From positions 1,235 through 65,234 of the forward strand of contig JBDOIF010000152.1 of NCBI GenBank assembly GCA_041082215.1: a DNA stretch of 64,000 nucleotides. The letters are read 5' to 3'. Numbering within the stretch: position 1 is the first letter of the stretch; each line of letters opens with the position of its first letter. The notes beneath the pieces were generated by a model that worked only from the letters and a program-made list of their open reading frames with translations, was not told where the DNA came from and did not search any database. Origin of the DNA: Anaerolineae bacterium. Its GTDB lineage: Bacteria > Chloroflexota > Anaerolineae > B4-G1 > DUEL01. Of the stretch, positions 10,276 through 59,715 are shown one piece after another. The position numbers and the translations under genes were made by a program.

Positions 10276-10322
10276 AGCTCACCTCCTCTGAACGTGAAAC
10301 CTGGAACCTTAACCGGGGTTAT

Positions 10323-10357
10323 CAGACGTCAAACGTCAGACGTCATATGTCGAACGA
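10323..10357. repeat. Tandem heptanucleotide repeat (CAGACGT/CAAACGT, about 5 units), same family as 59150..59238
   Basis: cagacgtcaaacgtcagacgtcatatgtcgaacga, in the etfB / LysM-gene intergenic space. Confidence 0.6.
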
Positions 10358-23903: not shown

Positions 23904-24905
23904 ATGAGGGCAATGCTTCTGCCCAGGCCCCGGCCAGCGGAGGAACGGCCGCTCGAGCTTGCCGACCTTCCCCTTCCCCAACCCGGCCCCGGCCAGGTCC
24001 GCATCCGGGTGCGGGCCTGCGGGGTCTGCCATACCGACCTCCACACGGTGGAAGGGGACCTCGCCCTGCCGAAGCTCCCCCTTGTCCCCGGCCACCAGAT
24101 CGTGGGGGTGGTGGAGGAAAGGGGAGAGGGGGCGGACCGGTTCGAGGTCGGGCAGCGGGTAGGGGTGCCCTGGCTCTACCATACCTGCGGCGCATGCGAG
24201 TTCTGCCGGCGGGGGCTGGAAAACCTCTGCACCGAGGCCCGCTTTACCGGCCTCCACGCCGACGGCGGCTACGCCGAGGCGATGGTGGCCCATCAGGACT
24301 TTGCCTATCCCCTCCCCGAAGGTTTCCCGGATGTGGCAGCGGCGCCTCTCCTCTGCGCGGGGATCATCGGCTACCGGGCGCTCAGGCTGAGCGGGGTGGA
24401 GCCAGGGCAGCGGCTGGGGATGTACGGCTTCGGCGGCTCGGCTCACATCACCATCCAGGTGGCCCGCCACTGGGGCTGCGAGGTCTACGTCTTCACCCGC
24501 AGCGAAAGCCACCGACGGCACGCCCTGGAGCTGGGGGCGGCCTGGGTGGGGGGCGCGGAAGAGGATCCCGGGGTCCGGCTGCACGGGAGCATCATTTTCG
24601 CTCCGGCAGGAAAGCTGGTGCCGGAGGCGCTTCGGGTGCTGGAGCGGGGCGGCACGCTGGCGCTGGCCGGAGTGACGATGACCCCCATCCCGGAGCTGGA
24701 TTACGACCGGCTGCTCTACTGGGAACGGTCGGTCAGAAGCGTGGCCAACTTCACCCGGCAGGATGCGGAAGAGCTGCTGGCGCTGGCCGCCGAGATCCCC
24801 ATCCGCACCACTGTGCAGACCTTTCCCCTGGAAGCGGCCAACGAGGCGCTGCTGGCCCTCAAGCGGAGCCAGATCGAAGGGACGGGGGTGCTGGTCATCG
24901 GATAG
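23904..24905 (+). CDS. Zinc-binding alcohol dehydrogenase (MDR family)
   Basis: GVCHTDLH zinc motif and Rossmann glycine motif GFGGSAH. Confidence 0.85.
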   Translation: MRAMLLPRPRPAEERPLELADLPLPQPGPGQVRIRVRACGVCHTDLHTVEGDLALPKLPLVPGHQIVGVVEERGEGADRFEVGQRVGVPWLYHTCGACEFCRRGLENLCTEARFTGLHADGGYAEAMVAHQDFAYPLPEGFPDVAAAPLLCAGIIGYRALRLSGVEPGQRLGMYGFGGSAHITIQVARHWGCEVYVFTRSESHRRHALELGAAWVGGAEEDPGVRLHGSIIFAPAGKLVPEALRVLERGGTLALAGVTMTPIPELDYDRLLYWERSVRSVANFTRQDAEELLALAAEIPIRTTVQTFPLEAANEALLALKRSQIEGTGVLVIG

Positions 24906-27900
24906 CGGCCGGCAACCGCGCCCGGAGCGGGGCCGGGAGGAGCGGCGCCAGCATTTCCCATTCCTGCGGGGTGATCGCCCGCAACCCAACCAGCGCCACC
25001 AGGTAGACCCCCAGCCCTGCCAGCCCTGCCAGCGGACGGTTCAGGAGAGCCACCCCTCCGGTCACCACACCCATCGCCAGCCCGGCCAGGGCCAGCCGCC
25101 CGATCGTCTGCCGCCAGCCCACCGGCCCCAACTGGCGGCGCAGGTCCAGGTAGAACAGCCCCGCCAGCAGCAGTTCTCCCCCCACGATGATCCACGCCGA
25201 GGCAATGTAGCTGAAAGCCGGCACGAAGAGGAGGTTTGCCACCACGGCGAAGACCACCCGCGCCCCTGAGGCCAGGAGGACGTACCGCTGGCGGTTGAGG
25301 GCGATCAGCACATAGTTGGTCAGGCTGTTGAGCCAGCCGAAGAGGATGGACCAGATCAGCAGCCGCAGCGCCGTCGCGCCATGGGGGAGGAACCGGCTGC
25401 CGCTGAGCAGCCCGACCAGCCCCGTCGCCGCCAGCGCGACCACCACCGCTACCGGCAACGCCACCGCCGTCAGCAGCTTGACGGAGAGCTGATAGGAGCG
25501 GCGGAGGCCGGCCCGGTCCTGGGCTGCCTGCTGGGACATCACCGGAAAGACGGCGAGGGTGAAGAAGGAGGGGATGATGTTCAGGGCGTCCACCCACTTG
25601 CGGGCGGCGTCATACCAGCCGACGGCGGCATCCCCCTGGAGGTTCTGGAGCAACAGCACGTTGACGCCCGGGAAGAGGGCCTGCAGCAGGATGGAGGCCA
25701 TCAGGGGCCAGCTCTCGGAGAGCATCAGCCGTTGCAGGGGCCAGGCCACCTGTTCGCGGGTGGGCGGAAGGCGGGACCAGACCAGCCGGTGGGCCAGTAC
25801 CGCCAGTACCGCCAGGGTCGCCAGGTTGGTCAGGACCGCCGCTCCGGCCAGCCCCACGATCCCCATCCCGGCCACCAGCACCAGCACCCCCAGCGTGACC
25901 CGCACCACCGTGGTCACCGTCTGGATGGCGGCGGGGATTTCGTGCTTTTCGAAGCCGCGAAAGAGGGCGGCAAACCCGTAGGCCACGCTCCCCGGCAGCA
26001 GGCCGACGTAGAGCAGCGCCGTCGCCCAGACCGTCTCCTCCGCCAGTGCCCCACCCAGCCCCTGCCATCCGGCCAGAAACCCCCCCAGCATGGGGGCCAC
26101 CGCGGCGTAGAGAAGTAGCCGGAGGACGGTGGTGTTGAGGAAAATCCTGCGCGCCTGATCCCGCTGACGGGCCACCTCCCGCATCATGTACATGTCCAGG
26201 CCGAAGTTGGCCAGCGTGTCAAACCAGAGGTAAATGTTGACCGCCGTCGCGTACTGGCCGTTCCCCACCGGTCCCAGGATGCGGGCCATCAGCGCGGCGA
26301 AGGCGAACTCGATGGCCCGGTTGAAGAGGTTGAGGACAATGGGGGCCAGAGAGTTCTTCGCCACCCGCCGGACGGTGCTGACCTCGTCCTCCTCCCGGTA
26401 AAAGAACCGCCAGAGGTAGAGGCCGACGAGGAAGAGCACCATCATCCCGGCGATGAAGGTGATGAAGGCGCCGACCTTCACGCTGTTGGGGCTGTATTTG
26501 AAGCGGACGGTCCAGGCCCCCGGCTCCAGGAATACTCCCCGGAAGTTCCCGTCCACCCGGGCCACTGCCACCTCCTGTTCTGCCTCTTCTCCCGCCCCCT
26601 GAGGCCGCACGAAGGCCCGCCAGCCGGGGAAGTAGGAGTCGGTCAGCACCAGCCAGCTCGGCTCGGAGACGCTGACATCAATAAAGACCTCGTTGAGGGT
26701 GTAGCTGGTGACTCGTTGCTGGTTGCTGATTGCTGGTTGCTCGCTGCCAGCAACCAGCGACCAGTGACCAGTTTCGAGTATTACGTAGCGGTGGGGGTCA
26801 TAGGTCCGCAGGGCCTGAGCGACGTCGTCGGCCACGACGGCGGCGGTGGCGGGGAGGGTAAAGGCGCGGGGGAGCGCCGAGAGGTTTTCGTACACTCGCA
26901 CCGCCTCGTCCTGATAGACCAACCGGTATTTGGCCGGGTTGGGGATTTCCACCTCGGTGACGATGTATTTGACGTTGAGCAGGTCGAGGAGGGGGCTATC
27001 GAGGCTGGACCACTGCCGGAGGGGGGCAATCCGATTGTACTGGAGCTGGTCCTGTGGCTCGATCAGCTCCATATAAGCGGCGTACTGCTGGGGAAAGATA
27101 GAGTCGTACCCATCCACTGCCTGGAGTCCGTAGAACATCCCCACATTGGCGTTCATTGTCTTGGTAGTGCCGGGCGGGGTGAAGGCGGCGTACCGCCAGA
27201 GGGAGCCGTCCTGCCGCAGGAACGCCACCACCGGCGGGGTGTAGTCCAGAAGCGCCGGGTCCACTGCCGGATGGAACCCCGCGCCGAAGGAGACCAGGTC
27301 CACCACCAGCACTGTCACGGCCAGGAACTCCCACACCGGCCGGCGGCGGAGGAAGATGGGGCAGCGGCTCACCCGCAGGGCGATGCCGGTGGCAGCAAGC
27401 AGCAGTCCGAAGAGGGCAACCCACCTGAACTCGTAGGAGTAGAAGGCCCGATGGTCGGGAAAGGCGCTGGAGGCCAGGGCCAGATTCCAGAAGGCCTGCT
27501 CCACCAGCGGCTCGATCTGTCCGAAGAAGGCCCGGCTGAGGACCAGCCCGACCAGGGTCACCACCCCTCCCCAGAAAGCCATCGCGGCCAGCAGGCTCAC
27601 CAGCGACGGAGCGGCGTCCAGGAGGAGAAACCTGCCCACTCCCCGCTTTCCCCCTCCTGTCCCCTCTTCCCTGCTTCGCCTCACCTCATCCACCCCGAAC
27701 CCTGCCAGCACCGCTACCGACAGGGTGAGGGGGAAGACCCAGCGGAAGGGAGAGTGGGACTGGTGGAGGTAGGGCAGGGCGTAGACGAGGGCGTAGAGGG
27801 GGGTTCCGAAGATGCAGCCGAAGGAGAAGAAGGCGAGAAGGGTAAAAAAGGCACCGATCGCAGGGCGCATAGCGCAGGGCAGCCTGCGGAATACGCAATA

Positions 27901-29124
27901 CGCCATACGGAATACAGCCACTGCGGCCAGGAAAAGCGGCAGAAGCCCCACATAGGCCCCACCCTCGACGTAGTTCTTGATCCCCCAGTCGTGGCTGAGG
28001 ATCGGCTCCCCGTGGGCGTTGACGGAGGCGGGGACCGTGCGCCACTGGAAAAGGTCAAAATAGCTGTGGTGAGCCGGGTTGCCGAAGAAATTGGGGATGG
28101 CGAAGGCGATAATGCGGCGCGGCGGGTATGCCCAGCCGAGCACCTGCTGGAGTGTCGGTGCCGCCTGTGCGCTGCGGAAGCCGGTGGTGGCCACCTCGTA
28201 GAGGGGGACGAACTGCACCGCCCCCAGCGCCAGCCCCAGCAGGACCATCAGGACCAGCCATGCCGCCGTTCTTAACCGCAAAGGGCACAAAGTCTTCTTT
28301 AAGGAAACCACGGAGGGAGCCCTGAAAACTCTGCGAAACTCTGTGTTCTCCGTGTCTCCGTGGTTAGAACCTGATGGAACTGCATAAGTCCTGCCAATCA
28401 ACCGCCAGACGGCGTAGGCTCCGGTCACCAGGAGCACGAAGTAGGTGTTCTCAGCGTGGCCCGCCAGCATCTGGCAGCCCAGCCCCATCCCTCCCAGGAG
28501 CACCCAGGGAAGGCTGGATGGGCGGCTACCCAGTGCCGGCCGCTGCTGGATCACCCGCTCCACCATCGCCAGGATGAAGGGAAGCCAGGAAGAGCCTGCG
28601 ATGATCATCGGGTGGACCACGGAGACCAGCATAAAACCGCTGAACTGGAAGGTGATCCCGGCGATGAGCCCCCCCAGCCGGCTGGCCCCCAGCGTACGGG
28701 CGAGGAGGTAAGCCCACCAGCCAGCCAGCCCCAGTTGGAGCCAGGTAAAGACCCCGTAGGCCCGCCACAGTGGGAGGACATAGAAGACAAGGCTCAGGGG
28801 GTAGAGGACCGAATGCTGCCCGTTGGCGAAGAAGGGATGGCCGGCGAAGACATAGGGGTCCCAGAGAGGCAGCTCCCGCGCCTGGATTGCTTCCACCAGA
28901 AGCCGCTTCCAGGCATAGTTTTCCAGGATCAGGTCGGCCAGCAGGTGGTTTTGGGGGACCCCCACTCCCAGCTCCTCTGCTGCTGCCCGATAGGGCTGGT
29001 GCAGAAAGAGAGCGTCGGCAGGGAGGAGGGTGCGGTCGTCCAGGACGACGGGGGCGAAGAGGATCAGCGGCAGAAAGAGGAGGATGGAGGCCGCAGCCAG
29101 GGTGGAAAGCCTGCAACGGATCAT
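24895..29124 (-). CDS. Giant fusion protein: N-terminal YfhO-family membrane glycosyltransferase-like domain (about 900 aa) fused to a C-terminal Wzx/MATE-like polysaccharide flippase domain (about 500 aa)
   Basis: The N-terminus ([12 protein letters not shown]...[22 protein letters not shown]...) is typical of YfhO. From [37 protein letters not shown] onward it is a canonical Wzx-family flippase. Start set at MIRCRL (29124), overlapping the upstream GT2 stop by 4 bp. Confidence 0.6.
26713..26775. repeat. Palindromic TTGCTGG-type heptamer array embedded in frame in the YfhO-Wzx CDS
   Basis: gttgctggttgctgattgctggttgctcg / ctgccagcaaccagcgaccagtgaccag are reverse complements of each other; translated as [14 protein letters not shown]. 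Confidence 0.55.
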
Positions 29125-29858
29125 GCGCCTGCCCGGAGGGACCGCAGGTGCCGGTGTCGCCAGCGGACCTCCCACACCCGCAGTGCCGCCTCGATCTTGA
29201 CCGGCATCGTCATCTTGGAGCGACCGATGCGCCGGTCCTCGAAGTAGATGGGGACTTCTAAGACGCGGTAGCCGAGCCGTTCGCAGACGTAGGCCATCTC
29301 CACCTGGAAGACGTAGCCCTGGGAGCGGATGGCACTCAGGTCAATGCCCTCCAGGGCCTCCCGCTTCCAGGCCTTGAATCCGGCGGTGATATCTCGCACC
29401 CGGCAGCCGAGGATGATGCGGGCGTAGAGGTTGGCCCACCAGGAAAGGATCACCCGCCCCAGGCCCCACTTCTCATCGGTGCGGCCCCCCTTTACATAGC
29501 GGGATCCCACCACGACATCGTATTGGGGGATATGGGCCAGGAGCCGGGGGACGTCGGAGGGAGCGTGGGAGAAGTCGCAGTCCATCTGCACGATTGCCTC
29601 CGCTCCGTGGGCCAGCGCCCACCGGAAGCCGTCCACATAGGCCCGTCCCAGCCCCCGTAGTCCGGTCCGATGGAGGACGTAGAGCCTGCCGGGGTTTTCC
29701 TCCGCCAGCCGGTCAGCGATCGCTCCGGTGCCGTCGGGCGATTCGTCGTCCACGATCAGGATGTCCAGGTCGGGGACCCCCAGCTCCCACAGCGCCCTTG
29801 CCATGGGGGTCACGTTTTCCGCCTCGTTATACGTTGGTATCACAACGGTTGTTTTCAT
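29121..29858 (-). CDS. GT2 polyprenyl-phosphate mannose/glucose synthase (Dpm1-like)
   Basis: [12 protein letters not shown]...[13 protein letters not shown]...QMDCDFSH are GT2 / DPM-synthase motifs. Confidence 0.8.
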
Positions 29859-29939: not shown

Positions 29940-30806
29940 TTACGAGGAGGCCAGCGAACCCCGGATCGCCTCCCGCAACCCATTCAGGTCCGAAAAAGCC
30001 CCGGGGCCGGTGAGCGTGCCCAGCCGGACCGACAGATGGGGGAGGGGGGAACCATCCCGGCTGCGGCCGGTTTCCCAGTCAACGCGGGGGTAGAAGAAGA
30101 TCAGCGTTTCCCGCAGGCGGGTGCTCAGCCGTTCCCGCGCCCGCAGGACATTTTCGGGGTGGAGGGGGAGGAAGAACACCGTGTCGTCCAGGTGGCCGAC
30201 GAAGGCATCCACTCCCTCTTCCTCTCGGGCGATGCGCTGGATCATCAGTGCCACGGCGCGGAGTACGTCGTCGCGGGCCACGAAGCCGTAGACATCGGCA
30301 AACCTTTCCAGGCCATCCAGCGCCACAGTCACAACGGCCCAGGGGTCCTTTGTTGTCAGGAGCTCCCTGAGCCGTGCTTCGGCGAGGGCGGCGAAGGGAA
30401 TGCCGGTCACCGGGTGGGTGACCGGCTCTGTGCTGGCCCGCCGCAGGACGTTGCGGACCCGCAGCTTGAGTTCCTGGACGTCGAAGGGCTTGGTGATGTA
30501 GTCTACCGCTCCCAGCTCCAGCCCGGCCAGTCGGTCAATCCGCTCCCGCCTTTCGGTGAGGAAGATGATGGGGATATGGGCGGTCCGCCTGTGGCTGCGC
30601 AGTCGTCGGCAGATCTCGTAGCCGTCTATATCCGGCAGGCGGATGTCCAGCACGATCAGATCGGGTGGGTTCTTTTTTGCGAGGGCCAGAGCTTCGTTCC
30701 CCCAGCCTACAGCCGTGACCGCGTACCCCTGTGCCTCGAAGTACGAGGTCAGCATCTCGGCCGTGTTTGGCTCATCTTCGACAATTAGGATATGCCGCGG
30801 CTCCAT
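29940..30806 (-). CDS. Response regulator with C-terminal degenerate GGDEF-like domain
   Basis: REC domain (ILIVEDEPNTAEML...DLIVLDIRLPDIDG...DYITKPF); the C-terminal GGDEF fold carries GHLDD in place of GG(D/E)EF. Confidence 0.65.
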   Translation of the reverse strand: MEPRHILIVEDEPNTAEMLTSYFEAQGYAVTAVGWGNEALALAKKNPPDLIVLDIRLPDIDGYEICRRLRSHRRTAHIPIIFLTERRERIDRLAGLELGAVDYITKPFDVQELKLRVRNVLRRASTEPVTHPVTGIPFAALAEARLRELLTTKDPWAVVTVALDGLERFADVYGFVARDDVLRAVALMIQRIAREEEGVDAFVGHLDDTVFFLPLHPENVLRARERLSTRLRETLIFFYPRVDWETGRSRDGSPLPHLSVRLGTLTGPGAFSDLNGLREAIRGSLASS

Positions 30807-30827
30807 CGCCGCCCCCGATGGTCCTGA

Positions 30828-31460
30828 CTAGCCGATAGGTTCTTTATAAATCGCATAGGTGCAGACCTTGCCGCCGGCGGCTGCGCATTCGATCTCGTCT
30901 ATACGGAACTTTTTGCCGCCGCTGACCCAGTGAAGCCCTTCTTCGATGACCCCCATCCCGGCGAAACAGATGGGCCGGTCCGCATGGCGACCCCAGCAGA
31001 CCGGGCAGGGGTGCATTGTGTAGGTGTAGTATTCTCCCTTGTCCTCCACTTCGCTGACCTGGTCGCTGAACTGGGTGAAGATTTTGGCCAGCGCCGGTAG
31101 CCCGGCCTTCAATTTGGCGGGAAGGGGTAGCACTTTAAAGGCGAGGTCTCCCACACCAGCCAGAGGGCCAAACCCTGGCAGCCCCAGGGCGAAGGCTGCC
31201 CGACCGGCCCGCAACTGAAGCCCCCGCCCTCCGCGCGGGCCGTACATCTCCTCCAGCGCCCAGTTCAGGGCCGAAAAATCGGCAAAGTCGAATTCTTTGT
31301 CGAAGTTGTCCGGGGGATAATTGTCGATCAGATGGGAGAGGCCGGCCAGGTTGAGGATCGCGTTGAGGCCGTTTTTCCCCATCACCTCCTCGATGGCCTG
31401 GATGTAGATCCGGGCCAGCTTGTTGGGGTAGAAGTAACCGCTGGGCTCGATCCGTCTCAC
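30828..31460 (-). CDS. V4R (4-vinyl reductase) domain protein
   Basis: C-terminal HPCPVCWG...CFAGMGVIEEGLHW Cys motif and overall V4R-like sequence. Confidence 0.5.
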   Translation of the reverse strand: MRRIEPSGYFYPNKLARIYIQAIEEVMGKNGLNAILNLAGLSHLIDNYPPDNFDKEFDFADFSALNWALEEMYGPRGGRGLQLRAGRAAFALGLPGFGPLAGVGDLAFKVLPLPAKLKAGLPALAKIFTQFSDQVSEVEDKGEYYTYTMHPCPVCWGRHADRPICFAGMGVIEEGLHWVSGGKKFRIDEIECAAAGGKVCTYAIYKEPIG

Positions 31461-31484
31461 GTCTAGCCTCCTGTGCCGCCTCTG

Positions 31485-31874
31485 CTACAAAATATCTGCC
31501 AGCTCTTCGGCCGCGCGACGCATCTCCAGGAAAACCAGCCCCAGCTTGGCGCCTGCCCGGGCCAGGACGGTCAGGACGGCCTCTTCACCGACTGCGGTCA
31601 GGATGACATAGCCGCCCTCACCCTTCACGTACACCTCGTCCAGCGTCCCCCGGCCCAGCTCGCTGGCGATCCGTTCGCCCAGCGAGAGCATCGCCGCAGA
31701 CATCGCCGAGACCCGGTCCTCCTCCACCCCCGCCGGCAGGGATGAAGCCATCGTCAGCCCGTCTACACTCACCACAGCGGAGGCCTCGATGTCGGGGGTG
31801 CTCATCTGGAGTTCACGCAGGCGTTCTACCAGCCGCTCGGTGCGGGACCTTTCTACCATTCCGTGCTCCTTCAA
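31485..31874 (-). CDS. Roadblock/LC7 (MglB-like) domain protein
   Basis: ASAVVSVDGLTMASSL...GGYVILTAVGEEAVLTVLA is a typical Roadblock/LC7 fold signature. Confidence 0.65.
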   Translation of the reverse strand: MKEHGMVERSRTERLVERLRELQMSTPDIEASAVVSVDGLTMASSLPAGVEEDRVSAMSAAMLSLGERIASELGRGTLDEVYVKGEGGYVILTAVGEEAVLTVLARAGAKLGLVFLEMRRAAEELADIL

Positions 31875-32029: not shown

Positions 32030-32110
32030 CCTCACCCCATCCCCCTCACCCCACCCCCTGGCTCCCTGCCGCGCGGGAGAGGGGAGGGGGTAGGGGGAAG
32101 GGTGAGGGTC
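32030..32110. repeat. About 80-nt C-rich / G-rich imperfect hairpin (G-quadruplex-capable arm)
   Basis: gacctcaccccatccccctcaccccaccccctggctccctgccgcgcgggagaggggagggggtagggggaagggtgagggtc; the arms are reverse complements, and the G-arm has four or more G3-5 runs. Downstream of comEA. Confidence 0.5.
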
Positions 32111-32153: not shown

Positions 32154-32765
32154 TCAGTCCACCGTGATCCGACCCCGGATCTCCTCGAAGACCGCCGGGC
32201 CAATGCCAGGGACCTCCATCAGCTCTTCCACGCTCTTGAAGGGGCCGTATGTCTCCCGGTATTCGACGATCCGCTGGGCTGTGGAAGGGCCGATGTGGGG
32301 GAGCATTTCCAGCTCCTCAACGGTGGCGATGTTGATGTTTACTATCCCCCCGCTGGCGGAAGCAACCCCGCCGGAAAGAACAGGGATAGGGGGCTCCTCC
32401 CCCACGCGCGGCACGTAGACCTGTTGCTGGTCTCTCAGCTCCTGCGCCAGGTTGATGCGCTCGAGATCGGCTTCGGGCGCCGGACCCCCGGCTGCGCGCA
32501 CGGCGTCTTCCACCAGGCTGCCGGGGGGAAGACGGTAGACCGCGGGCTGCTGCACCGCCCCACAGACGTAAACTCGCAGAGGGAGGGGGGTGGGAGTGGG
32601 GAGGGGGGTGGCCGTGGGGTCAGGGGTGCTGACCTCGATGGGAGGGGCCTGGGGATGGGGGGTGAAGAAGCCCAGCAGGCCGCCTGCGATCAGGCTCAGC
32701 ACAGAGCAGAGGACCAGAAGGCTGCGGTGACGCGCGACGCCGCTCCCCAAATCCGTGTTTTCCAT
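32154..32765 (-). CDS. comEA: ComEA-like DNA-binding protein (tandem helix-hairpin-helix)
   Basis: N-terminal TM; C-terminal VNINIATVEELEMLPHIGPSTAQRIVEYRETYGPFKSVEELMEVPGIGPAVFEEI has HhH motifs. Confidence 0.75.
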   Translation of the reverse strand: MENTDLGSGVARHRSLLVLCSVLSLIAGGLLGFFTPHPQAPPIEVSTPDPTATPLPTPTPLPLRVYVCGAVQQPAVYRLPPGSLVEDAVRAAGGPAPEADLERINLAQELRDQQQVYVPRVGEEPPIPVLSGGVASASGGIVNINIATVEELEMLPHIGPSTAQRIVEYRETYGPFKSVEELMEVPGIGPAVFEEIRGRITVD

Positions 32766-32898
32766 GTGCTTTTCTCCGTTGTAAGCTGCGTTTGTGCCTG
32801 ATTATACTCCGGGAGGCAAAAGAGACAAGTCCACCTTCTCCCCTTGTCCACTCCTCCCTTTCATGCTACAATCTTCCAGGCCTGGGAGTGCGGAAAGC

Positions 32899-42977: not shown

Positions 42978-43319
42978 CTACTCTACCTCTATGCTTTCCA
43001 CCAGCAATTCCTTGCCCCCCACGGCGATCGGCTGGAGCAGGCCGCACTGAGGGCAGGTCCAATCCGCTCCATCCGGCTCATACTCCGCCCCGCAGTTCAG
43101 ACAACGGAAGCGGGCGGGCACGTGTCGGAAGGCCAGCTCTGCCCCTGCTGCCATCGTATCCCGGCTGAGGAAATCGAAGTAGAACTGAACCGATTCGCCG
43201 ACGATGCCGGAGAGCTCCCCCACGGCCAGGTGGATGCGAAGGATACGATTCGCCCCGGCCTGTTTGGCGTGGGCCAGGGCGATGTCCAGAATGGATTGGG
43301 TTACGGAGAGTTCATGCAT
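42978..43319 (-). CDS. hypA: Hydrogenase/metalloenzyme nickel-insertion protein HypA
   Basis: MHELSVTQSILDIALAHA, C-terminal CLNCG...CPQCG zinc motif. Confidence 0.85.
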   Translation of the reverse strand: MHELSVTQSILDIALAHAKQAGANRILRIHLAVGELSGIVGESVQFYFDFLSRDTMAAGAELAFRHVPARFRCLNCGAEYEPDGADWTCPQCGLLQPIAVGGKELLVESIEVE

Positions 43320-43334
43320 ACGGAATACGGAGCA

Positions 43335-43364
43335 CGGAGTACGTATTGCGTGTTGCGTACTCCG
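43335..43364 (-). terminator. Repeat-derived hairpin (CGGAGTACG / CGTACTCCG) immediately 3' of fdhA
   Basis: cggagtacgTATTGCGTGTTGcgtactccg lies 2 nt after the fdhA stop; TACGGAA/TATTGCG repeat family. Confidence 0.45.
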
Positions 43365-43365
43365 T

Positions 43366-45471
43366 TTACGAAACCGGCTCCACCCGCACCGCGCAGACCT
43401 TGTACTCCGGGATTTTGGCGAGGGGGTCCAGCGCGGCGTGGGTGAGCGCGTTCGCCGCCGCCTCCGCGTAGTGGAAGGGGATGAAGACGACGCCGGGCCG
43501 GATGCGCTTCGTCAGCCGCACCGCAACCTCGATCTCCCCTCGGCGACTCATCACCCGCACCCGCCGAGCGCCGTCCAGGCCGATGCGGGCCGCGTCGTCC
43601 GGATGCATCTCCACATACGGCTCCGGCGCCTCCTGCTCCAGTTTGGGCGACCGGCGGGTCATGGTGCCGGTGTGGAACTGGAACATGGTGCGGCCCGTGG
43701 TCAGGATGAACGGGTACTCCTCATCGGGCAGTTCCGCCGCCTCCTGGAACTCTATCGCGTGGAAGCGGCCCAGGCCTCGGGTGAACTTCTCCTTGTGCAG
43801 GTACGGGGTGCCGGGGTGTTCGGCCGACGGGACGGGCCACTGCAGGGAGCCCTCCCGGTCCAGCCGCTCGTAGGTGACGCCGCCGTAGGAGGGCGCGACG
43901 CGGGCGATTTCAGACATGATTTCGGCGGGGGAGGAGTAGTCCCATTGCGTATTGCGTATTGCGTATTGCGTATCGCGTGCTGCGTGTTGCGTAAGGCGCT
44001 TGGCCAGTTCACAGAGGATTTCCCAGTCGGCCTTGGCCTGGCCCGGCGGGTCCACGGCCTTCCGCACCCGCTGGATGCGCCGGTCGGTGGCGGTGAAGGT
44101 GCCGTCTTTCTCGGCAAACGATGCGCCCGGCAGAACCACGTGCGCCAGTTGTGCCGTCTCCGTCAGGAAGATGTCCTGAACGACCAGGAAGTCCAGTTTC
44201 TCCAGGCACTCCCGCGCGTGGTGGATGTCGGGGTCGGAGAGAAGGGGGTTCTCGCCCATCACGAAGAGGCCCCGCAGGCGCCCCTCCCCTGCCGCGTGGA
44301 CCATCTCCACGACGGTCATGCCAACCTTGTCGGACAACCCCTCCATGCCCCAGGCGGCCTCAAATCTGGCCTTCGCCTCCGGCGAGGTGACGGGCTGGTA
44401 GGCCGGGTAGACGTTGGGGAGGCCGCCCATGTCGCAGGCGCCCTGGACGTTGTTCTGGCCCCGCAGGGGGTTGACCCCGCCGCCAGGGACGCCCAGATTG
44501 CCGGTGAGCATGGCCAGGTTGGCTACGCTCTTGACGTTGTCGGTGCCGGTGGTGTGCTGGGTGATCCCCATTGCATAGAGAATGGCGGCAGGCTTGTTCT
44601 GGGCGTACATCCGCGCCGCGGCGCGCAGGTCCTCCGCTGGGATGCCGGTAATCTCCTCCACCCGCTCCGGCGGGTACTGCTGGACCACCTGCCACATTTC
44701 CTCAAAGCCCTCGGTCCGCTGCCGGATAAACTCCTGGTCGGCCAGTTCCTCGGTGATGATGACGTACATCAGGCCGTTGAGCCAGGCGACATCGGTGCCG
44801 GGGCGGGGGCGCAGGTAGAGGTCGGCCATCCGGCCGATCTGGACCTCGCGCGGGTCGATGACGACAATTTTCGCCCCCCGCTCCTTTGCTTTGAGGACAT
44901 GGCTGGCGATGAGGGGGTGGCCCTCGGTGGTGTTGGAGCCGGTGATCAGGAAGCAGCGGGTGTATTCGCTGAACTCCGGGATGGAGTTAGTCATCGCGCC
45001 ACTGCCGAATGCGGCGGCCAGACCGGCCACCGTGGGGGCGTGTCAGAGACGGGCGCAGTGGTCCACGTTGTTGGTCCTGAAGACGGCGCGGGCCAGTTTC
45101 TGGGCCAGGTAGTTCTCCTCGTTGGTGCACTTGGCGGAGACCAGGAAGCCCAGGGCGTCGGGGCCGTATGTGTCGCGGATGTGGAGCAGCCGATCCGCGA
45201 CCAGGCCCAGCGCCTCGTCCCAGGACGCCTCCCGGAACCCCCCCTGTGTCCCCCCCGCATGCAGGGGGGAGCGGATGAGGGGGGTCGTCAGCCGGTCCGG
45301 GTGGCGGACGAAGGCGGTGGCGTTCCAGCCCTTGATGCAGAGTTTCCCCCCGCTGACGGGGTGCTCCTTCGCCGGCAACACCCCGACGATTTCGCCGTCC
45401 AGCACCTGGATGTAGAGGCCGCATCCGGTGCCGCAGTAGGGGCAGGTAGTGAAGATGTTTCGGTAGTCCAT
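43366..45471 (-). CDS. fdhA: Formate dehydrogenase catalytic subunit (FdhF/FdhA-type), selenocysteine-containing; in-frame TGA at 45043..45045 read as Sec
   Basis: Tracked ORFs 45043..45513 and 43366..45030 are in the same frame and together align with FdhF: CPYCGTGCG...NNVDHCARL-[TGA]-HAPTVAGL (E. coli: CARV-U-HGPSVAGL). Downstream MGITQHTTG, RGQNNVQGACDMG and a C-terminal KVCAVRVEP are molybdopterin-enzyme motifs. N-terminus placed at MDY (45471); the tracked upstream 14 aa are repeat-derived. Confidence 0.85.
43944..43995. repeat. TTGCGTA heptanucleotide tandem array (about 7 units) in frame inside fdhA
   Basis: attgcgtattgcgtattgcgtattgcgtatcgcgtgctgcgtgttgcgtaag, translated as ...[12 protein letters not shown]..., an insertion relative to the E. 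coli FdhF alignment. Confidence 0.7.
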
Positions 45472-45513
45472 AGGGTACTCCGTGTTACGTATTCCGTATT
45501 GCGTGTCCTGCAT

Positions 45514-47193
45514 TCACGCATCCAGACTCTTGAGAAAATCATTCGCTGCTTTTGCCAGTAATCGCGCTCTTTCCTTGAGAAACTGCTCGTAGTGCTCAAT
45601 GCTCCATTGCCCTTCTAACTGGGCCTTATTTCCAACAGCTTGCGCAAATGAATCGGGGATCAAGTGCTCAAGAAGTAACTGTTCGGAAATGTTGAATTGG
45701 GCCAGGTATTTTGCAGGTGGTTTTCCAGACAACCGGTTCACGTTTGTGCTTTCGTTCAGTACCGTGATGTTTGCCAGAGCATGAATCCGGTCATCAGGGA
45801 CACCGGCACTTCTCAGCACGCTGCGAGGATAAACGTGGTGCCACTGGGGTTCAAACCCACTCACGATTAAAGCACCTGTCCTATCATAGCCAATACGGGT
45901 TTGGTCTACCCAATCCCGCGCTTCTCGGTGAAACACCACCAGATAAAGCATCAGACGCAAGAAACGGCTACCAGCGCAGTCATACCGGCTCAGAAACTCT
46001 TCGGGGGTAATTTCGGAAGGCGCGTGTAAGCGCCCGTATAGGTTCTTTAAAGCCTGATCAAAGTCCTGCGCTTCAGTAATTGCGCGCACGTCCTCGTTCA
46101 AACTGGTAATCGCTGAACCGCTGTAACGGCCATCCCAGTTTGCCAGAAGAAACCAGCGAACAGCCTTGCTAAATCGGTAATTTTTCGTATCTTTCCAGCG
46201 GTGATGTAGCACGAAGAGAGGGATCAGACTGTTAACCGAGGGGAGCAACTTTACTGACATAATCCCGACCTCGGCCAGCCGTTTTCGAACTTCCACGATT
46301 ACTTCTCTGGTTTGTTGCCAAACAACGCTCAGGTTTTGAGGATTCCAAAAGTCTTTAGGGACTTCCTTCAGTCGGGCTCGCCCTTTACCAATGCCAGTCA
46401 TTGTGCGGACGAAGATGCCGGCATCCAGTCCCCATCCTATATCCTCCAACTCGCCGCAAAAGGGAAGATATTCCTCTCGCACCCAGCCTGGATTCCGTAC
46501 AGCGGCCAGCGCCAGAACAACATCGGCTTCCTTCACTCGCGTCCCTTCTTGATTCAACCGAGCGAAAATCTCGGCCACGTCTTCCACTTCATGGTTGATC
46601 CGAATTATGGGAATATCTCGCTCACGGATTTGCCACAAGCGCTGTAAGCGAGCATGGACTTTTGCAAACAGGTCCATCATCTGGGCAGGCTCAGGCTGAA
46701 TGGATGCCACAATCTCTTGAGCCAGTAGAGTTAGTGTCTCAACGTTCTCTGTGCTCAGTACACGGCGCAGGCTAATCCAGTGTGGATCGCGGCGACGGAT
46801 AGGGTTCGGCAGAGCAAACTCCAGATGGTCTTCGTCAGGGAGAAGATTTACCATCACATCATACCGCTCCAGGGCCCTGTTCCATTCCTGTGCGCTATCC
46901 CACCAGTATGGCTTTTGCCCTAAAAGCAGGCAAAGAGCAACCGTCCGTTGTTGCCCATCTACAATCCAAAGCGAAGCCTGCGTACCCTGGGCCGTTTTGG
47001 ACTCCTGGTACGAATACGAAGAGGAGTCCCAGAGCAAAAACGAACCGATCGGATAATCGCGATAGAGTGACTCCGCCAGTTTCTTGACCTGCTCCGGATC
47101 CCAAACGAATTCTCGCTGAAATTCAGGAATATCCACGCTCTTGTTGACCGCCTGTTTGACAATCTCCCGAACTTTCTGTTGCTCAAGTGCCAT
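45514..47193 (-). CDS. GmrSD-family type IV restriction endonuclease (DUF262 ParB-like + DUF1524 HNH-like)
   Basis: DUF262 N-terminus (IPEFQREFVW...DGQQR) and DUF1524 C-terminus (His/Asn motifs); markedly AT-richer than its surroundings. Confidence 0.75.
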   Translation of the reverse strand: MALEQQKVREIVKQAVNKSVDIPEFQREFVWDPEQVKKLAESLYRDYPIGSFLLWDSSSYSYQESKTAQGTQASLWIVDGQQRTVALCLLLGQKPYWWDSAQEWNRALERYDVMVNLLPDEDHLEFALPNPIRRRDPHWISLRRVLSTENVETLTLLAQEIVASIQPEPAQMMDLFAKVHARLQRLWQIRERDIPIIRINHEVEDVAEIFARLNQEGTRVKEADVVLALAAVRNPGWVREEYLPFCGELEDIGWGLDAGIFVRTMTGIGKGRARLKEVPKDFWNPQNLSVVWQQTREVIVEVRKRLAEVGIMSVKLLPSVNSLIPLFVLHHRWKDTKNYRFSKAVRWFLLANWDGRYSGSAITSLNEDVRAITEAQDFDQALKNLYGRLHAPSEITPEEFLSRYDCAGSRFLRLMLYLVVFHREARDWVDQTRIGYDRTGALIVSGFEPQWHHVYPRSVLRSAGVPDDRIHALANITVLNESTNVNRLSGKPPAKYLAQFNISEQLLLEHLIPDSFAQAVGNKAQLEGQWSIEHYEQFLKERARLLAKAANDFLKSLDA

Positions 47194-47233
47194 AGATGTT
47201 TCTCCTTCCGTAAGTTGGCATCCAGCAGAAGCC

Positions 47234-47428
47234 TCATTCCTGCTCCGTTCGCCACGCCAGAATCTGGTGCTGAAGTTCCACAGAGGTATAGCGAGAACCC
47301 AGGTCCCTTAAGGCACCGGCCCATTCAAACCCTGGATGAGCCCGGACCTTCTTTTCACGCTTTGCCAGCAGAAACTCAATAAAATCCCGCACTTCCTGCC
47401 GGATGTCCGCAGGAAGCATCCGATGCAT
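47234..47428 (-). CDS. DUF2281-like small protein (antitoxin-like)
   Basis: 64 aa with QEVRDFIEFLLAKREKK, the DUF2281 pattern. Confidence 0.45.
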   Translation of the reverse strand: MHRMLPADIRQEVRDFIEFLLAKREKKVRAHPGFEWAGALRDLGSRYTSVELQHQILAWRTEQE

Positions 47429-51275: not shown

Positions 51276-51301
51276 AGCGTACTCCGTATTGCGTATTCCG
51301 T

Positions 51302-51825: not shown

Positions 51826-51870
51826 AGTACGGAATACGTGCTGCGTACTGCGTATTCCGTATTCCGTGCT
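51826..51870. repeat. TACGGAA-family palindromic repeat hairpin between the 4HB gene and hdrA
   Basis: ggagtacggaatacgTGCTGCGTACTGcgtattccgtattccgtgctcc. Confidence 0.6.
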
Positions 51871-59149: not shown

Positions 59150-59238
59150 GTCGGGCGTCAAACGTCAGGCGTCAAACGTCAAACGTCAAACGTCAGGCGT
59201 CAAACGTCAAACGTCAAACGTCAAACGTCAGGCATCAA
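59150..59238. repeat. Tandem array of about 13 GTCAAAC / GTCAGGC heptamers
   Basis: gtcgggcgtcaaacgtcaggcgtcaaacgtcaaacgtcaaacgtcaggc...gtcaggcatcaacc, between mvhD2 and lplA. Confidence 0.85.
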
Positions 59239-59665: not shown

Positions 59666-59715
59666 CTACGGAATACGCAGTACGTACTACGTATTGCGTG
59701 TCGCGTATTGCGCCC
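59666..59715. repeat. TACGGAA/TATTGCG-family repeat overlapping the hdrA2 3' end
   Basis: ctacggaatacgcagtacgtactacgtattgcgtgtcgcgtattgcgc; it encodes the last residues (AMRAQYATRNT) of the tracked HdrA2 ORF. Confidence 0.6.

Follow-up and report, generated by a model that had tools for sequence, protein, structure and literature searches.

The three-component CsbB/GtcA/YfhO systems of the Gram-positive bacteria B. subtilis, S. aureus and Listeria combine a GT2 glycosyltransferase that presumably synthesizes a polyprenyl-phosphate sugar with a flippase and a GT-C enzyme of the YfhO family that has a large external domain, and the GT2 and GT-C genes adjoin (PMC8035078, PMC5836110). The GacI/GacJ/GacK/GacL system of Streptococcus pyogenes includes the cytoplasmic GT2 GacI, the GT-C enzyme GacL, and the Wzx-family protein GacK, a proposed flippase for a monophosphate-linked sugar (bioRxiv 10.1101/180810). 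It offers a multi-component precedent, as GacK is proposed to serve GacL together with GacI (PMC8035078; bioRxiv 10.1101/180810). GacI requires the membrane partner GacJ for full activity, and GacK, the sole flippase of the Wzx type put forward for a monophosphate sugar, is itself unproven in this role (bioRxiv 10.1101/180810).

In the window, the whole 64,000-nt stretch analyzed here, putative GT-A synthase, flippase, and GT-C functions are linked in two overlapping genes. Compared with CsbB/GtcA/YfhO, the flippase is of the Wzx/MOP type rather than the GtrA type and is covalently fused to the GT-C part; the GT2 lacks C-terminal TM segments and is closer to DPMS than to CsbB-like enzymes; and the host belongs to the Chloroflexota class Anaerolineae, where teichoic acids are not established. 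GacK and GacL, in contrast, are separate proteins, and GacL is PMT_2-like, not a YfhO protein. Mycobacterial AftD and other class-A GT-C enzymes (STT3/AglB/PglB, PMT, and ArnT) showed only 8-13% sequence identity, and none is joined to a flippase, unlike the fusion described here. We regard it as probable, though with considerable doubt, that the two genes form a compact three-component extracytoplasmic (transmembrane) glycosylation system, in which repeat arrays slip within permissive loops.

Domain architecture of the fusion protein

The fusion gene and its parts were located as follows.

24895..29124, minus strand: fusion gene, YfhO-type GT-C domain, linker and Wzx/MOP flippase domain (1,409 aa plus stop)
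26413..29124, minus strand: GT-C (YfhO family) part, aa 1-904, with 13 TM helices, external domain and TM14
28933..29016, minus strand: part of the first external loop with candidate catalytic acidic residues (D37 codon 29014-29016; D64 codon 28933-28935)
26350..26412, minus strand: cytoplasmic linker from TM14 to the flippase domain, aa 905-925
24898..26349, minus strand: Wzx/MOP-type flippase domain, aa 926-1409 (PF01943 and PF13440)

Read from its first GTG, the minus-strand ORF covered 24895..29175, and the ATG at 29124, which gives 1,409 aa, coincided in the alignment with the MIR... start that the orthologues conserve. Pfam searches of the fusion protein detected Polysacc_synt (PF01943; 105.9 bits, aa 922-1198, profile positions 2-272 of 274) and PF13440 (67 bits, profile positions 1-290 of 293), both above the gathering threshold, and the Wzx/MOP domain is, as the preliminary description stated, part of the same uninterrupted ORF, at its C-terminal end. 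YfhO (PF09586) was matched in three stretches with 47.4 bits (cut-off 28.5), a modest score that we count against the preferred reading. Standalone YfhO relatives scored 89-109 bits and were collinear over profile positions 33-603 and 757-835.

The GT-C part has the fold of its class, an N-terminal multi-TM module followed by an extracytoplasmic globular domain of ~265 aa (aa 615-879). Topology was assigned by the positive-inside rule, with a K+R density of 0.20 inside and 0.04 outside; TM14 leads the chain back to the cytoplasmic side before the Wzx domain. The same rule placed the loop carrying D37 and D64 outside. Among 109 fused and standalone YfhO relatives, D64 was invariant and D37 was at least 90% conserved. 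Acidic residues just after TM1 are in a position typical of GT-C enzymes, and the two aspartates are candidate catalytic residues. The linker was rich in K and R, and the N-terminus of the flippase domain is assigned to the cytoplasm, which fits the preceding domain. Against the NCBIfam models Wzx_EPS, SpoVB, and MurJ, the flippase domain reached ~40 bits, far below the equivalence cut-offs of 372-800; judged by these profiles, it is a family member and the equivalog of no characterised flippase.

An assembly chimera or decaying pseudogene was suggested by the unusual length and the internal repeats, and by nothing more. This explanation is refuted, and its probability is practically nil. A separate Logan assembly of run SRR28530377 was identical over 4,513/4,513 nt (24815..29327), a stretch that includes the three arrays. 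The ORF was intact in the related species loci examined, the mean column identity of 24 aligned orthologues was 68%, and the GC3 of 0.83 was typical for genes of the window. The fusion protein is an intact membrane protein; its fusion is genuine and recurs in other genomes.

Distribution and gene neighbourhood of the fusion

A species scan found confirmed relatives of the fusion protein in 195 GTDB species. The best 80 of these 195 were all Anaerolineae-class MAGs (48-79% identity), in which the ORF was fused and uninterrupted wherever the contig permitted; no split Anaerolineae version was present among these 80 loci. The protein search returned >120 full-length homologues or clusters at 63-79% identity, and a count by eye gave roughly 46 fused clusters at 50% identity. 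Rather than being peculiar to this genome, the fusion is how the gene normally occurs throughout the class Anaerolineae.

This conservation bears on whether two independent activities were fused only for co-expression or stability. In that case, the MOP domain would export another lipid-linked precursor (an exopolysaccharide unit or a lipid II-like molecule), and the YfhO donor would arrive through a different flippase, e.g. one of the GtrA type whose gene lies elsewhere. Consistent with this, the flippase part of some relatives gave weak MurJ (PF03023) and MatE matches, SpoVB and Wzx_EPS scored equally (NCBIfam), and standalone YfhO relatives in Armatimonadota adjoin GT2 and PMT_2 genes with no Wzx neighbour. 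However, the fusion was retained over the whole identity range of the 80 best species with no split version, and the linker length is fixed: across 77 orthologues the W905-K923 spacing stayed at 17 residues (17-20), in contrast to the variable sites described below. We consider independent activities improbable.

The genes upstream of the fusion gene are listed below.

31485-31874, minus strand: Roadblock/LC7 protein (Pfam)
30828-31460, minus strand: V4R-domain protein (Pfam)
29940-30806, minus strand: response regulator with a degenerate GGDEF-like C-terminus (Pfam)
29121..29858, minus strand: GT2, 245 aa, candidate Dpm1/DPMS-like polyprenyl-phosphate sugar synthase (PF00535)
29121..29124, minus strand: start/stop overlap ATGA, translational coupling of the GT2 and fusion genes (from the sequence)

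The GT2 matched PF00535 with 95.8 bits (Pfam), and its best solved relative was the Dol-P-Man synthase of P. furiosus (5mlz, E = 3e-29), which aligned through its GT2 catalytic domain with residues 1-229. In this alignment, the nucleotide-sugar and metal motifs IPTYNE, VDDxSPD, MDxD (MDCD), and GSRYVKGG were retained. PfDPMS has four C-terminal TM helices that are missing here, and the GT2 contains no TM segment; eukaryotic DPM1 and mycobacterial Ppm1-D2 likewise have no TM anchor of their own. Its top NCBIfam matches were AglJ, Dol-P-hexose transferase, PpgS, and ArnC; it fell under every equivalog cut-off (the best, AglJ, at 72 bits vs 325), and no specific sugar or lipid was assigned, which also counts against the preferred reading.

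The coupling to a Dpm1/DPMS-like GT2 noted in the preliminary description was borne out, as the ATG of the fusion gene overlaps the TGA of the GT2 gene. Of 75 loci, 52 had the GT2 gene directly 5' of the fusion gene, and 36 of these 52 shared the 4-nt overlap (36/75 overall); the Roadblock-V4R-response regulator order 5' of the two genes was retained in most of the 75 Anaerolineae loci. Two observations were counted against the preferred reading: in 20/75 loci the GT2 gene was non-adjacent and the response regulator adjoined the fusion gene, and the more distant fused homologue P0318 had neither neighbour.

Canonical Wzx substrates are polyprenyl-diphosphate oligosaccharides, which also counts against a monophosphate substrate. 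The Wzx domain could instead flip a polyprenyl-diphosphate repeat unit, as classical Wzx proteins do. The GT-C part would then act in the manner of an oligosaccharyltransferase or ligase, transferring or polymerising the unit en bloc on a protein or cell-wall acceptor, and the neighbouring Dpm1-like GT2 would take part in a different step or merely decorate the product. However, neither a phosphoglycosyltransferase nor a further cytoplasmic GT set was present in the conserved cluster at any inspected locus, and the sole conserved GT neighbour was the DPMS-like monophosphate-sugar synthase, often translationally coupled. Characterised YfhO members, moreover, use monophosphate sugars in partnership with GT2 enzymes of the CsbB type (PMC8035078). 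These points make the en bloc alternative unlikely.

Short tandem arrays in the fusion gene

Mazel et al. reportedly described heptanucleotide STRR repeats in cyanobacteria in 1990. STRR repeats are 7-bp, often hairpin-capable elements of unknown function, which occur as tandem units, mostly intergenic, with several families per genome (PMC2670836). The window likewise contained tandem 7-nt units of several families (lag-7 regions, the TACGGAA family, and TRF arrays). It differs from the cyanobacterial case in phylum, in its ~65% GC, in also having 8-nt units, and in carrying arrays that keep the reading frame within loop-coding parts of a conserved gene and are polymorphic in three-unit steps. 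Four variable sites were distinguished in the fusion gene.

28312..28392, minus strand: variable site 1, cytoplasmic loop after TM6, aa 245-271 (pLDDT below 50)
27886..27920, minus strand: variable site 2, TACGGAA/TACGCAA-type heptamer array, aa 402-413, cytoplasmic end of TM8 and the next loop
27604..27660, minus strand: variable site 3, cytoplasmic loop after TM10, aa 489-507, array hot spot in orthologues
26704..26779, minus strand: variable site 4, two inverted heptamer arrays with hairpin, encoding aa 784-807

At site 1, 28347..28362 consists of two copies of CACGGAGA and a degenerate third unit, encoding HGDTEN(TEF); CACGGAGA has the inverted partner CTCCCTCCGTGG, and a hairpin was weakly supported (z = -1.7). 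Taken alone, this two-copy array is weak. At site 2, the residues encoded by TACGGAA in part lengthen the cytoplasmic end of TM8 in the structure model. Site 3 has no array in the window's gene. The inverted ACTGGTC-type and AACCAGC-type arrays of site 4 encode a coil (aa ~785-803; 785-800 in the model) between two beta-strands of the external domain, and their RNA hairpin had an MFE of -38.9 kcal/mol (z = -5.1). Elsewhere, hairpin potential was moderate for an intergenic array at 43300 (z = -2.5) and not significant for sites 1 and 2. The topology and the model agreed with the earlier presumption that the inserts lie in loops: two are in predicted cytoplasmic loops and one in the external-domain coil, and none is within the buried TM core.

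The term insertion was apt for site 1 only, where the segment R241-W289 measured 47 aa against a median of 22 (range 17-52) in orthologues and aligned as a pure gap with P0318. The segments at sites 2 and 4 were no longer than in orthologues (15-66 aa at site 2; 25-47 aa at site 4, 29 in the window), and that at site 3 varied from 8 to 112 aa.

Lag-7 self-similarity was found in 8 regions of the window, 3 of them in the fusion gene, compared with 0.03 in shuffles, and TRF detected arrays across the window. Only the TACGGAA family was clearly dispersed in the window (13 matches vs 0.06 expected); CACGGAGA had 3 matches vs 0.07 expected, and TTGCTGG 6 vs 1.3, essentially local. The three arrays are real and exceed chance.

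In 77 orthologous genes, 81 of 102 arrays of period 7, 8, 14, or 16 fell in the four sites, where the unit sequences vary between species. Site 2 accounted for 30 period-7/8/14 arrays from 25 genes, site 3 for 28 in 19, and site 4 for 16 in 14. Among sequences clustering at 90% identity or more, the sites showed indels of 7, 8, or 16 aa, or of 4/8 aa when the period of the amino-acid repeat was 4 residues. Frameshifting copy-number variants were absent among these close relatives, whose array sites differed only by multiples of three units. Since close strains differ by 7, 8, or 16 residues, the arrays appear to slip, with only frame-preserving changes surviving. Period-7/8 arrays were 3.4 times denser within the gene than in its flanks; tolerance alone does not fully explain this density, which counts against the preferred reading.

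Surface-glycan genes are classical phase-variable loci. The arrays could be contingency tracts, in which adding or losing a single unit of 7 or 8 nt switches a glycosylation machine on or off; neither unit length is divisible by three, the arrays are enriched in this gene, and some orthologues carry long near-perfect tracts (e.g. GACCACG x15, 96% match). Nevertheless, all full-length orthologues were in frame, variants within clusters differed by whole multiples of three units, and the single split allele is interrupted near aa 868, outside the arrays. In the window, the arrays themselves are short, with imperfect units (77-92% match), and similar arrays are common in intergenic DNA and occur in one unrelated gene. 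Phase variation is therefore very improbable.

A proposed glycosylation mechanism

Homology, synteny, and topology point to a mechanism in which a lipid-linked sugar is made, flipped, and transferred. The soluble Dpm1-like GT2 would place a sugar from a nucleotide sugar on polyprenyl phosphate at the inner membrane face. Lacking any membrane anchor, this enzyme probably binds to the large membrane protein. A GacJ/DUF2304 homologue was not seen at this locus, and we therefore propose the fusion protein itself as the membrane partner of the GT2. The C-terminal Wzx/MOP domain would flip the polyprenyl-phosphate sugar, and the N-terminal YfhO-type GT-C domain, with its active-site loop and ~265-aa globular domain predicted to face outward, would transfer the sugar to an envelope acceptor. 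Such a fusion may be possible because the last TM helix of YfhO proteins leads the chain back into the cytoplasm, the side on which Wzx must begin.

The arrays would not be specific to the function of the gene. Anaerolineae genomes appear to contain many 7-8-nt tandem arrays, which resemble the cyanobacterial STRR repeats and may often form hairpins, and in this otherwise highly conserved gene these may persist only in four permissive segments, growing and shrinking by slippage, with only in-frame changes, three units at a time, surviving.

The fusion gene and its conservation in Anaerolineae

The fusion gene occupies a single unbroken minus-strand ORF, which extends over 24895..29175 when counted from the first GTG. 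Started at ATG 29124, which the alignment places in register with the N-terminus MIR... conserved in all orthologues, it encodes a protein of 1,409 aa. The ATG is shared with the TGA stop of the upstream gene in the motif ATGA. The preliminary description had proposed both this overlap and the presence of YfhO and Wzx domains in one uninterrupted ORF, and the sequence and the Pfam matches bear it out.

Pfam matches of the fusion gene and the adjoining GT2 gene
24895..29124, minus strand, fusion gene: YfhO PF09586, 47.4 bits (cut-off 28.5)
same gene, aa 922-1198: Polysacc_synt PF01943, 105.9 bits
same gene: Polysacc_synt_3 PF13440, 67 bits
29121..29858, minus strand, GT2 gene: 245 aa, PF00535, 95.8 bits

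In a contig assembled separately (Logan, run SRR28530377), the whole fusion gene with its three repeat arrays was covered, and 4,513 of 4,513 nt were identical; thus, the arrays are not an artefact of one assembler. Together with the intact ORFs of related loci, this identity ruled out a pseudogene or chimera. Promoter and terminator scans of the fusion locus remained at chance level.

A protein search returned >2,000 matches, the best 120 of which were all approximately 1,400 aa long, carried the same two Pfam families, and showed 63-79% identity. They came from Anaerolineae/Chloroflexota MAGs and were mostly annotated just as "oligosaccharide flippase family protein"; current pipeline annotation overlooks the transferase half. 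A locus scan, for which each GTDB species was represented by a single genome, confirmed relatives in 195 of these species. All of the best 80 loci came from Anaerolineae-class MAGs (labeled Anaerolineales, Thermoflexales/Thermoflexia, Ardenticatenales, or unclassified Chloroflexota) and, where the contig allowed, matched the query over its full length at 48-79% identity. On re-analysis of these 80 loci, every fusion gene not truncated by a contig end was one open frame. The architecture search thus found YfhO-Wzx fusions as a conserved family, and the fusion is the normal Anaerolineae form of the gene, not a peculiarity of one genome.

With the N-terminal 905 aa as query, an exhaustive HMMER search revealed 27,971 relatives, among which we counted approximately 46 fused clusters at 50% identity (at least 1,290 aa). 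Standalone relatives of 800-950 aa were also matched; these are collinear YfhO members (89-109 bits, profile positions 33-603 and 757-835). The nearest apparently standalone relative was P0121, and a metagenome scan for its locus returned just another fused gene. Two proteins probably from one ENA contig (the longest contig given for each is 22,768 nt), P0429 (884 aa) and P0430 (557 aa), are a member of the P0046 cluster split by a frameshift near residue 868, away from the array sites; the break may have arisen through faulty sequencing, or may mark a rare but natural split near the GT-C/flippase boundary.

Gene order was compared in 75 related loci with sufficient upstream sequence. A GT2 gene lay directly upstream of the fusion in 52 loci, 36 of them with the 4-nt start/stop overlap; in 20 loci a response regulator was directly upstream with no GT2 between, and in three it was something else. 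Farther upstream, genes for a Roadblock/LC7 protein, a V4R-domain protein, and a response regulator kept their order in most loci. This block, present in the window (29940-31874, minus strand) and in most of the related Anaerolineae loci (L003-L085), has a regulator with a degenerate GGDEF-like tail, and could serve as a dedicated regulatory unit. The neighborhood differed in a more divergent fused homologue, whose two halves showed 38% and 45% identity, and an Armatimonadota genome carried standalone YfhO genes amid GT2 and PMT_2 genes, without Wzx.

Predicted fold and proposed glycosylation scheme

A first AF2 model of the N-terminal part, for which the alignment was shallow (33 close orthologues), had a pLDDT of 48 and was discarded. 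The model based on 109 YfhO relatives, both fused and standalone, reached a pLDDT of 93.4 and a pTM of 0.93, with residues 251-271 as the sole disordered stretch. Searching PDB sequences with a profile of the full-length alignment gave no match, and the tie to solved GT-C structures came from fold comparison alone, with which Foldseek agreed.

Fold comparison of the N-terminal model (score)
AftD: 21.1, 568 residues aligned
STT3B: 18.5
AglB: 18.4
PglB: 17.7
Pmt4: 17.2
AftA: 15.7
ArnT: 14.6

The model helices form 13 TM segments, followed by a beta-strand-rich external domain of 265 aa (aa 615-879) and by TM14. With the N-terminus taken as inside, the K+R density was 0.20 in cytoplasmic loops versus 0.04 in external loops, satisfying the positive-inside rule. 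GT-C enzymes bear catalytic acids in the first external loop, and here, among the 109 relatives, D64 never varies and D37 almost never, making them candidate catalytic residues. The residues G672-Y673-D674-S675 are invariant as well. TM14 is predicted to bring the chain back to the cytoplasm exactly where the Wzx domain must begin, and the linker between the GT-C and flippase parts is of fixed length in 77 orthologues. A minor indel spot was seen in the first external loop near aa 51 of the window protein, where the eight residues GSTELAE[VA] (GSNELAEV once) are present or absent among close relatives (P0401, P0404, P0408, P0033, and P0053).

The nearest solved relative of GT2 was the dolichol-phosphate-mannose synthase (DPMS) of Pyrococcus furiosus (5mlz, E = 3e-29); the match spans the complete catalytic domain, and IPTYNE, VDDxSPD, MDxD, and GSRYVKGG align. 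ArnC enzymes came next. The best NCBIfam matches were polyprenyl-phosphate sugar synthases (AglJ, Dol-P-hexose transferase, PpgS, PgfS, and ArnC), none of which reached its equivalog cut-off, so no particular sugar can be assigned. The P. furiosus enzyme has C-terminal TM helices, whereas GT2 is without them. The translational coupling of this anchorless synthase to the fusion suggests that GT2 may dock on the fusion protein, as GacI on GacJ.

The simplest reading of these data is a three-component transmembrane glycosylation system, all of whose enzymatic steps we infer. The synthase would act at the inner membrane face, the flippase domain would carry its product across the membrane, and the GT-C domain would transfer the sugar at the outer face. 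Such a scheme is established for CsbB/GtcA/YfhO (PMC8035078), and one that uses a Wzx-type flippase has been proposed for GacI/J/K/L (bioRxiv 10.1101/180810). The identity of polyprenyl-monophosphate-sugar flippases is largely inferred, and the role of GacK is a hypothesis (bioRxiv 10.1101/180810). The Anaerolineae gene holds flippase and transferase in one polypeptide. The main rival is an OST-like machine that would "flip and ligate" diphosphate-linked units. It is the gene content of the locus, rather than the fold, that speaks against it; neither a phosphoglycosyltransferase nor an extra cytoplasmic GT was found in the conserved block of the related loci inspected. The preliminary description is confirmed as an observation; of its interpretation, the architecture is largely supported and the mechanism is plausible.

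Heptanucleotide arrays and length-variable sites

Self-similarity at a lag of 7 nt marked eight regions in the 64-kb window versus 0.03 in dinucleotide shuffles, and 7 was the sole enriched lag. Three of the eight regions fall within the fusion gene. The three arrays described there were found in place and code for the peptides attributed to them.

Array families of the fusion gene (matches in the window versus expected)
TACGGAA/TACGCAA: 13 versus 0.06; site 2; also at six other places in the window
CACGGAGA: 3 versus 0.07; site 1; the in-gene copy has just two exact units
TTGCTGG: 6 versus 1.3; site 4; essentially local

At 26704..26779, two inverted heptamer arrays were predicted to fold into a strong hairpin (-38.9 kcal/mol, z = -5.1); hairpin potential was moderate at the intergenic array at 43300 (z = -2.5) and not significant at sites 1 and 2. 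When 77 full-length orthologues were aligned, four segments proved hypervariable in length, and control segments were constant.

Length-variable sites of the fusion protein
Site 1, R241-W289, loop after TM6: 17-52 aa, window 47, median 22
Site 2, A403-F426, loop after TM8: 15-66 aa, window 22, median 33
Site 3, G477-L501, loop after TM10: 8-112 aa, window 23, median 31
Site 4, V781-N811, coil in the external domain: 25-47 aa, window 29, median 32

The three arrays had been called insertions. This holds for site 1 (47 versus a median of 22 aa), which alone exceeds the usual length, but not for sites 2 and 4. Their presumed placement in loops was upheld by the predicted topology, since they fall in the loops after TM6 and TM8 and in the external-domain coil; arrays inside buried TM cores were rejected from the structure model and topology.

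TRF detected 102 arrays of period 7, 8, 14, or 16 in 43 of the 77 orthologous genes, and 81 of them map to the four sites. The units vary by species (for example, GACCACG x15, CAGCAAAT x6.8, and GGAGACAA x10). Within clusters of at least 90% identity, lengths at the four sites differed by 7, 8, or 16 residues (21, 24, or 48 nt, equal to three or six units), or by 4 or 8 residues where the amino-acid repeat period was 4. No frameshifted array variant was seen among the orthologues and clusters compared. These site-bound, in-frame differences indicate that the arrays are dynamic and that selection keeps the frame; phase variation as their main role was rejected on the same in-frame variants.

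Across loci L006-L085 (80 Anaerolineae species), the density of period-7/8 arrays was 3.4 times higher in fusion genes (0.31 per kb) than in flanks (0.092 per kb), which simple loop tolerance does not obviously explain. On a reading that we consider improbable, the enrichment, always in the loops after TM6, TM8, and TM10, would reflect more than tolerance; the arrays could form mRNA hairpins that pace translation during membrane insertion, or tune loop length. The arrays resemble cyanobacterial short tandem 7-bp repeats (STRRs; PMC2670836) in their 7-nt unit and, at site 4 above all, in hairpin tendency, and we found no literature report of STRR-like heptanucleotide repeats in Chloroflexota. 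The arrays place STRR-like repeats beyond cyanobacteria and beyond intergenic DNA, and offer a clear example of probable slippage filtered by reading-frame selection.

Other heptanucleotide arrays of the window (10322-10356, 43318-43343, 45475-45504, 51278-51301, 51851-51867, 59156-59230, and 59667-59680) fall between genes or at their ends, as judged on a rough gene map drawn from stop to stop. They include CGTCAAA x10.7, TCAAACG x5, and several of the TACGGAA/TACGCAA family, and some have inverted halves with hairpin potential. The fusion gene is not the sole coding host, because an in-frame ATTGCGT x7 array (43944-43993) lies between the Molybdopterin and Molydop_binding Pfam domains of a minus-strand, formate-dehydrogenase-like molybdopterin oxidoreductase gene (43366-45513). 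In the same gene, the Fe4S4 and Molybdopterin domains run on across an in-frame TGA (45043-45045, minus strand, motif NNVDHCARL*HAPTVAGL), which is probably a selenocysteine codon and not a gene boundary. A low-GC island at approximately 45-48 kb (0.52-0.55 versus approximately 0.65) holds a likely horizontally acquired defense gene (45514-47307, minus strand), whose 597-aa product carries a GmrSD_N restriction-endonuclease domain. Upstream of the Roadblock gene, the spacer has short-period arrays in opposed positions (32030-32108), C-rich (CCTCACCCCATCCC) against G-rich (GGGAGG...), and an additional G-rich array (32579-32628) lies approximately 500 nt off, within a ComEA-like ORF (32154-32801, SLBB and HhH).

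Implications for the Anaerolineae envelope

What is new with respect to known three-component systems is that the system is fused, with a Wzx-type flippase and a DPMS-like synthase. No description of a fused Wzx-type system was found in the searchable literature, and the top-ranked publications for YfhO and Chloroflexi made no mention of YfhO. A more far-reaching reading, which we consider improbable, would make the fusion a self-contained glycolipid assembly line and the array enrichment functional: the anchorless synthase would be docked on the variable cytoplasmic loops, and the MOP domain would pass the flipped polyprenyl-phosphate sugar straight to the GT-C active site. If true, this assembly line would provide natural "Rosetta-stone" evidence for the flipping of monophosphate-linked sugars by MOP/Wzx proteins. 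The fusion is a natural test case for such flipping. The strongly conserved covalent MOP-GT-C fusion and its translationally coupled synthase form a tractable two-gene unit in which to study coupled synthesis, flipping, and transfer. Anaerolineae are an abundant, mostly uncultured class whose cell envelope is poorly known, and the fusion is the kind of conserved envelope function worth understanding in these bacteria.
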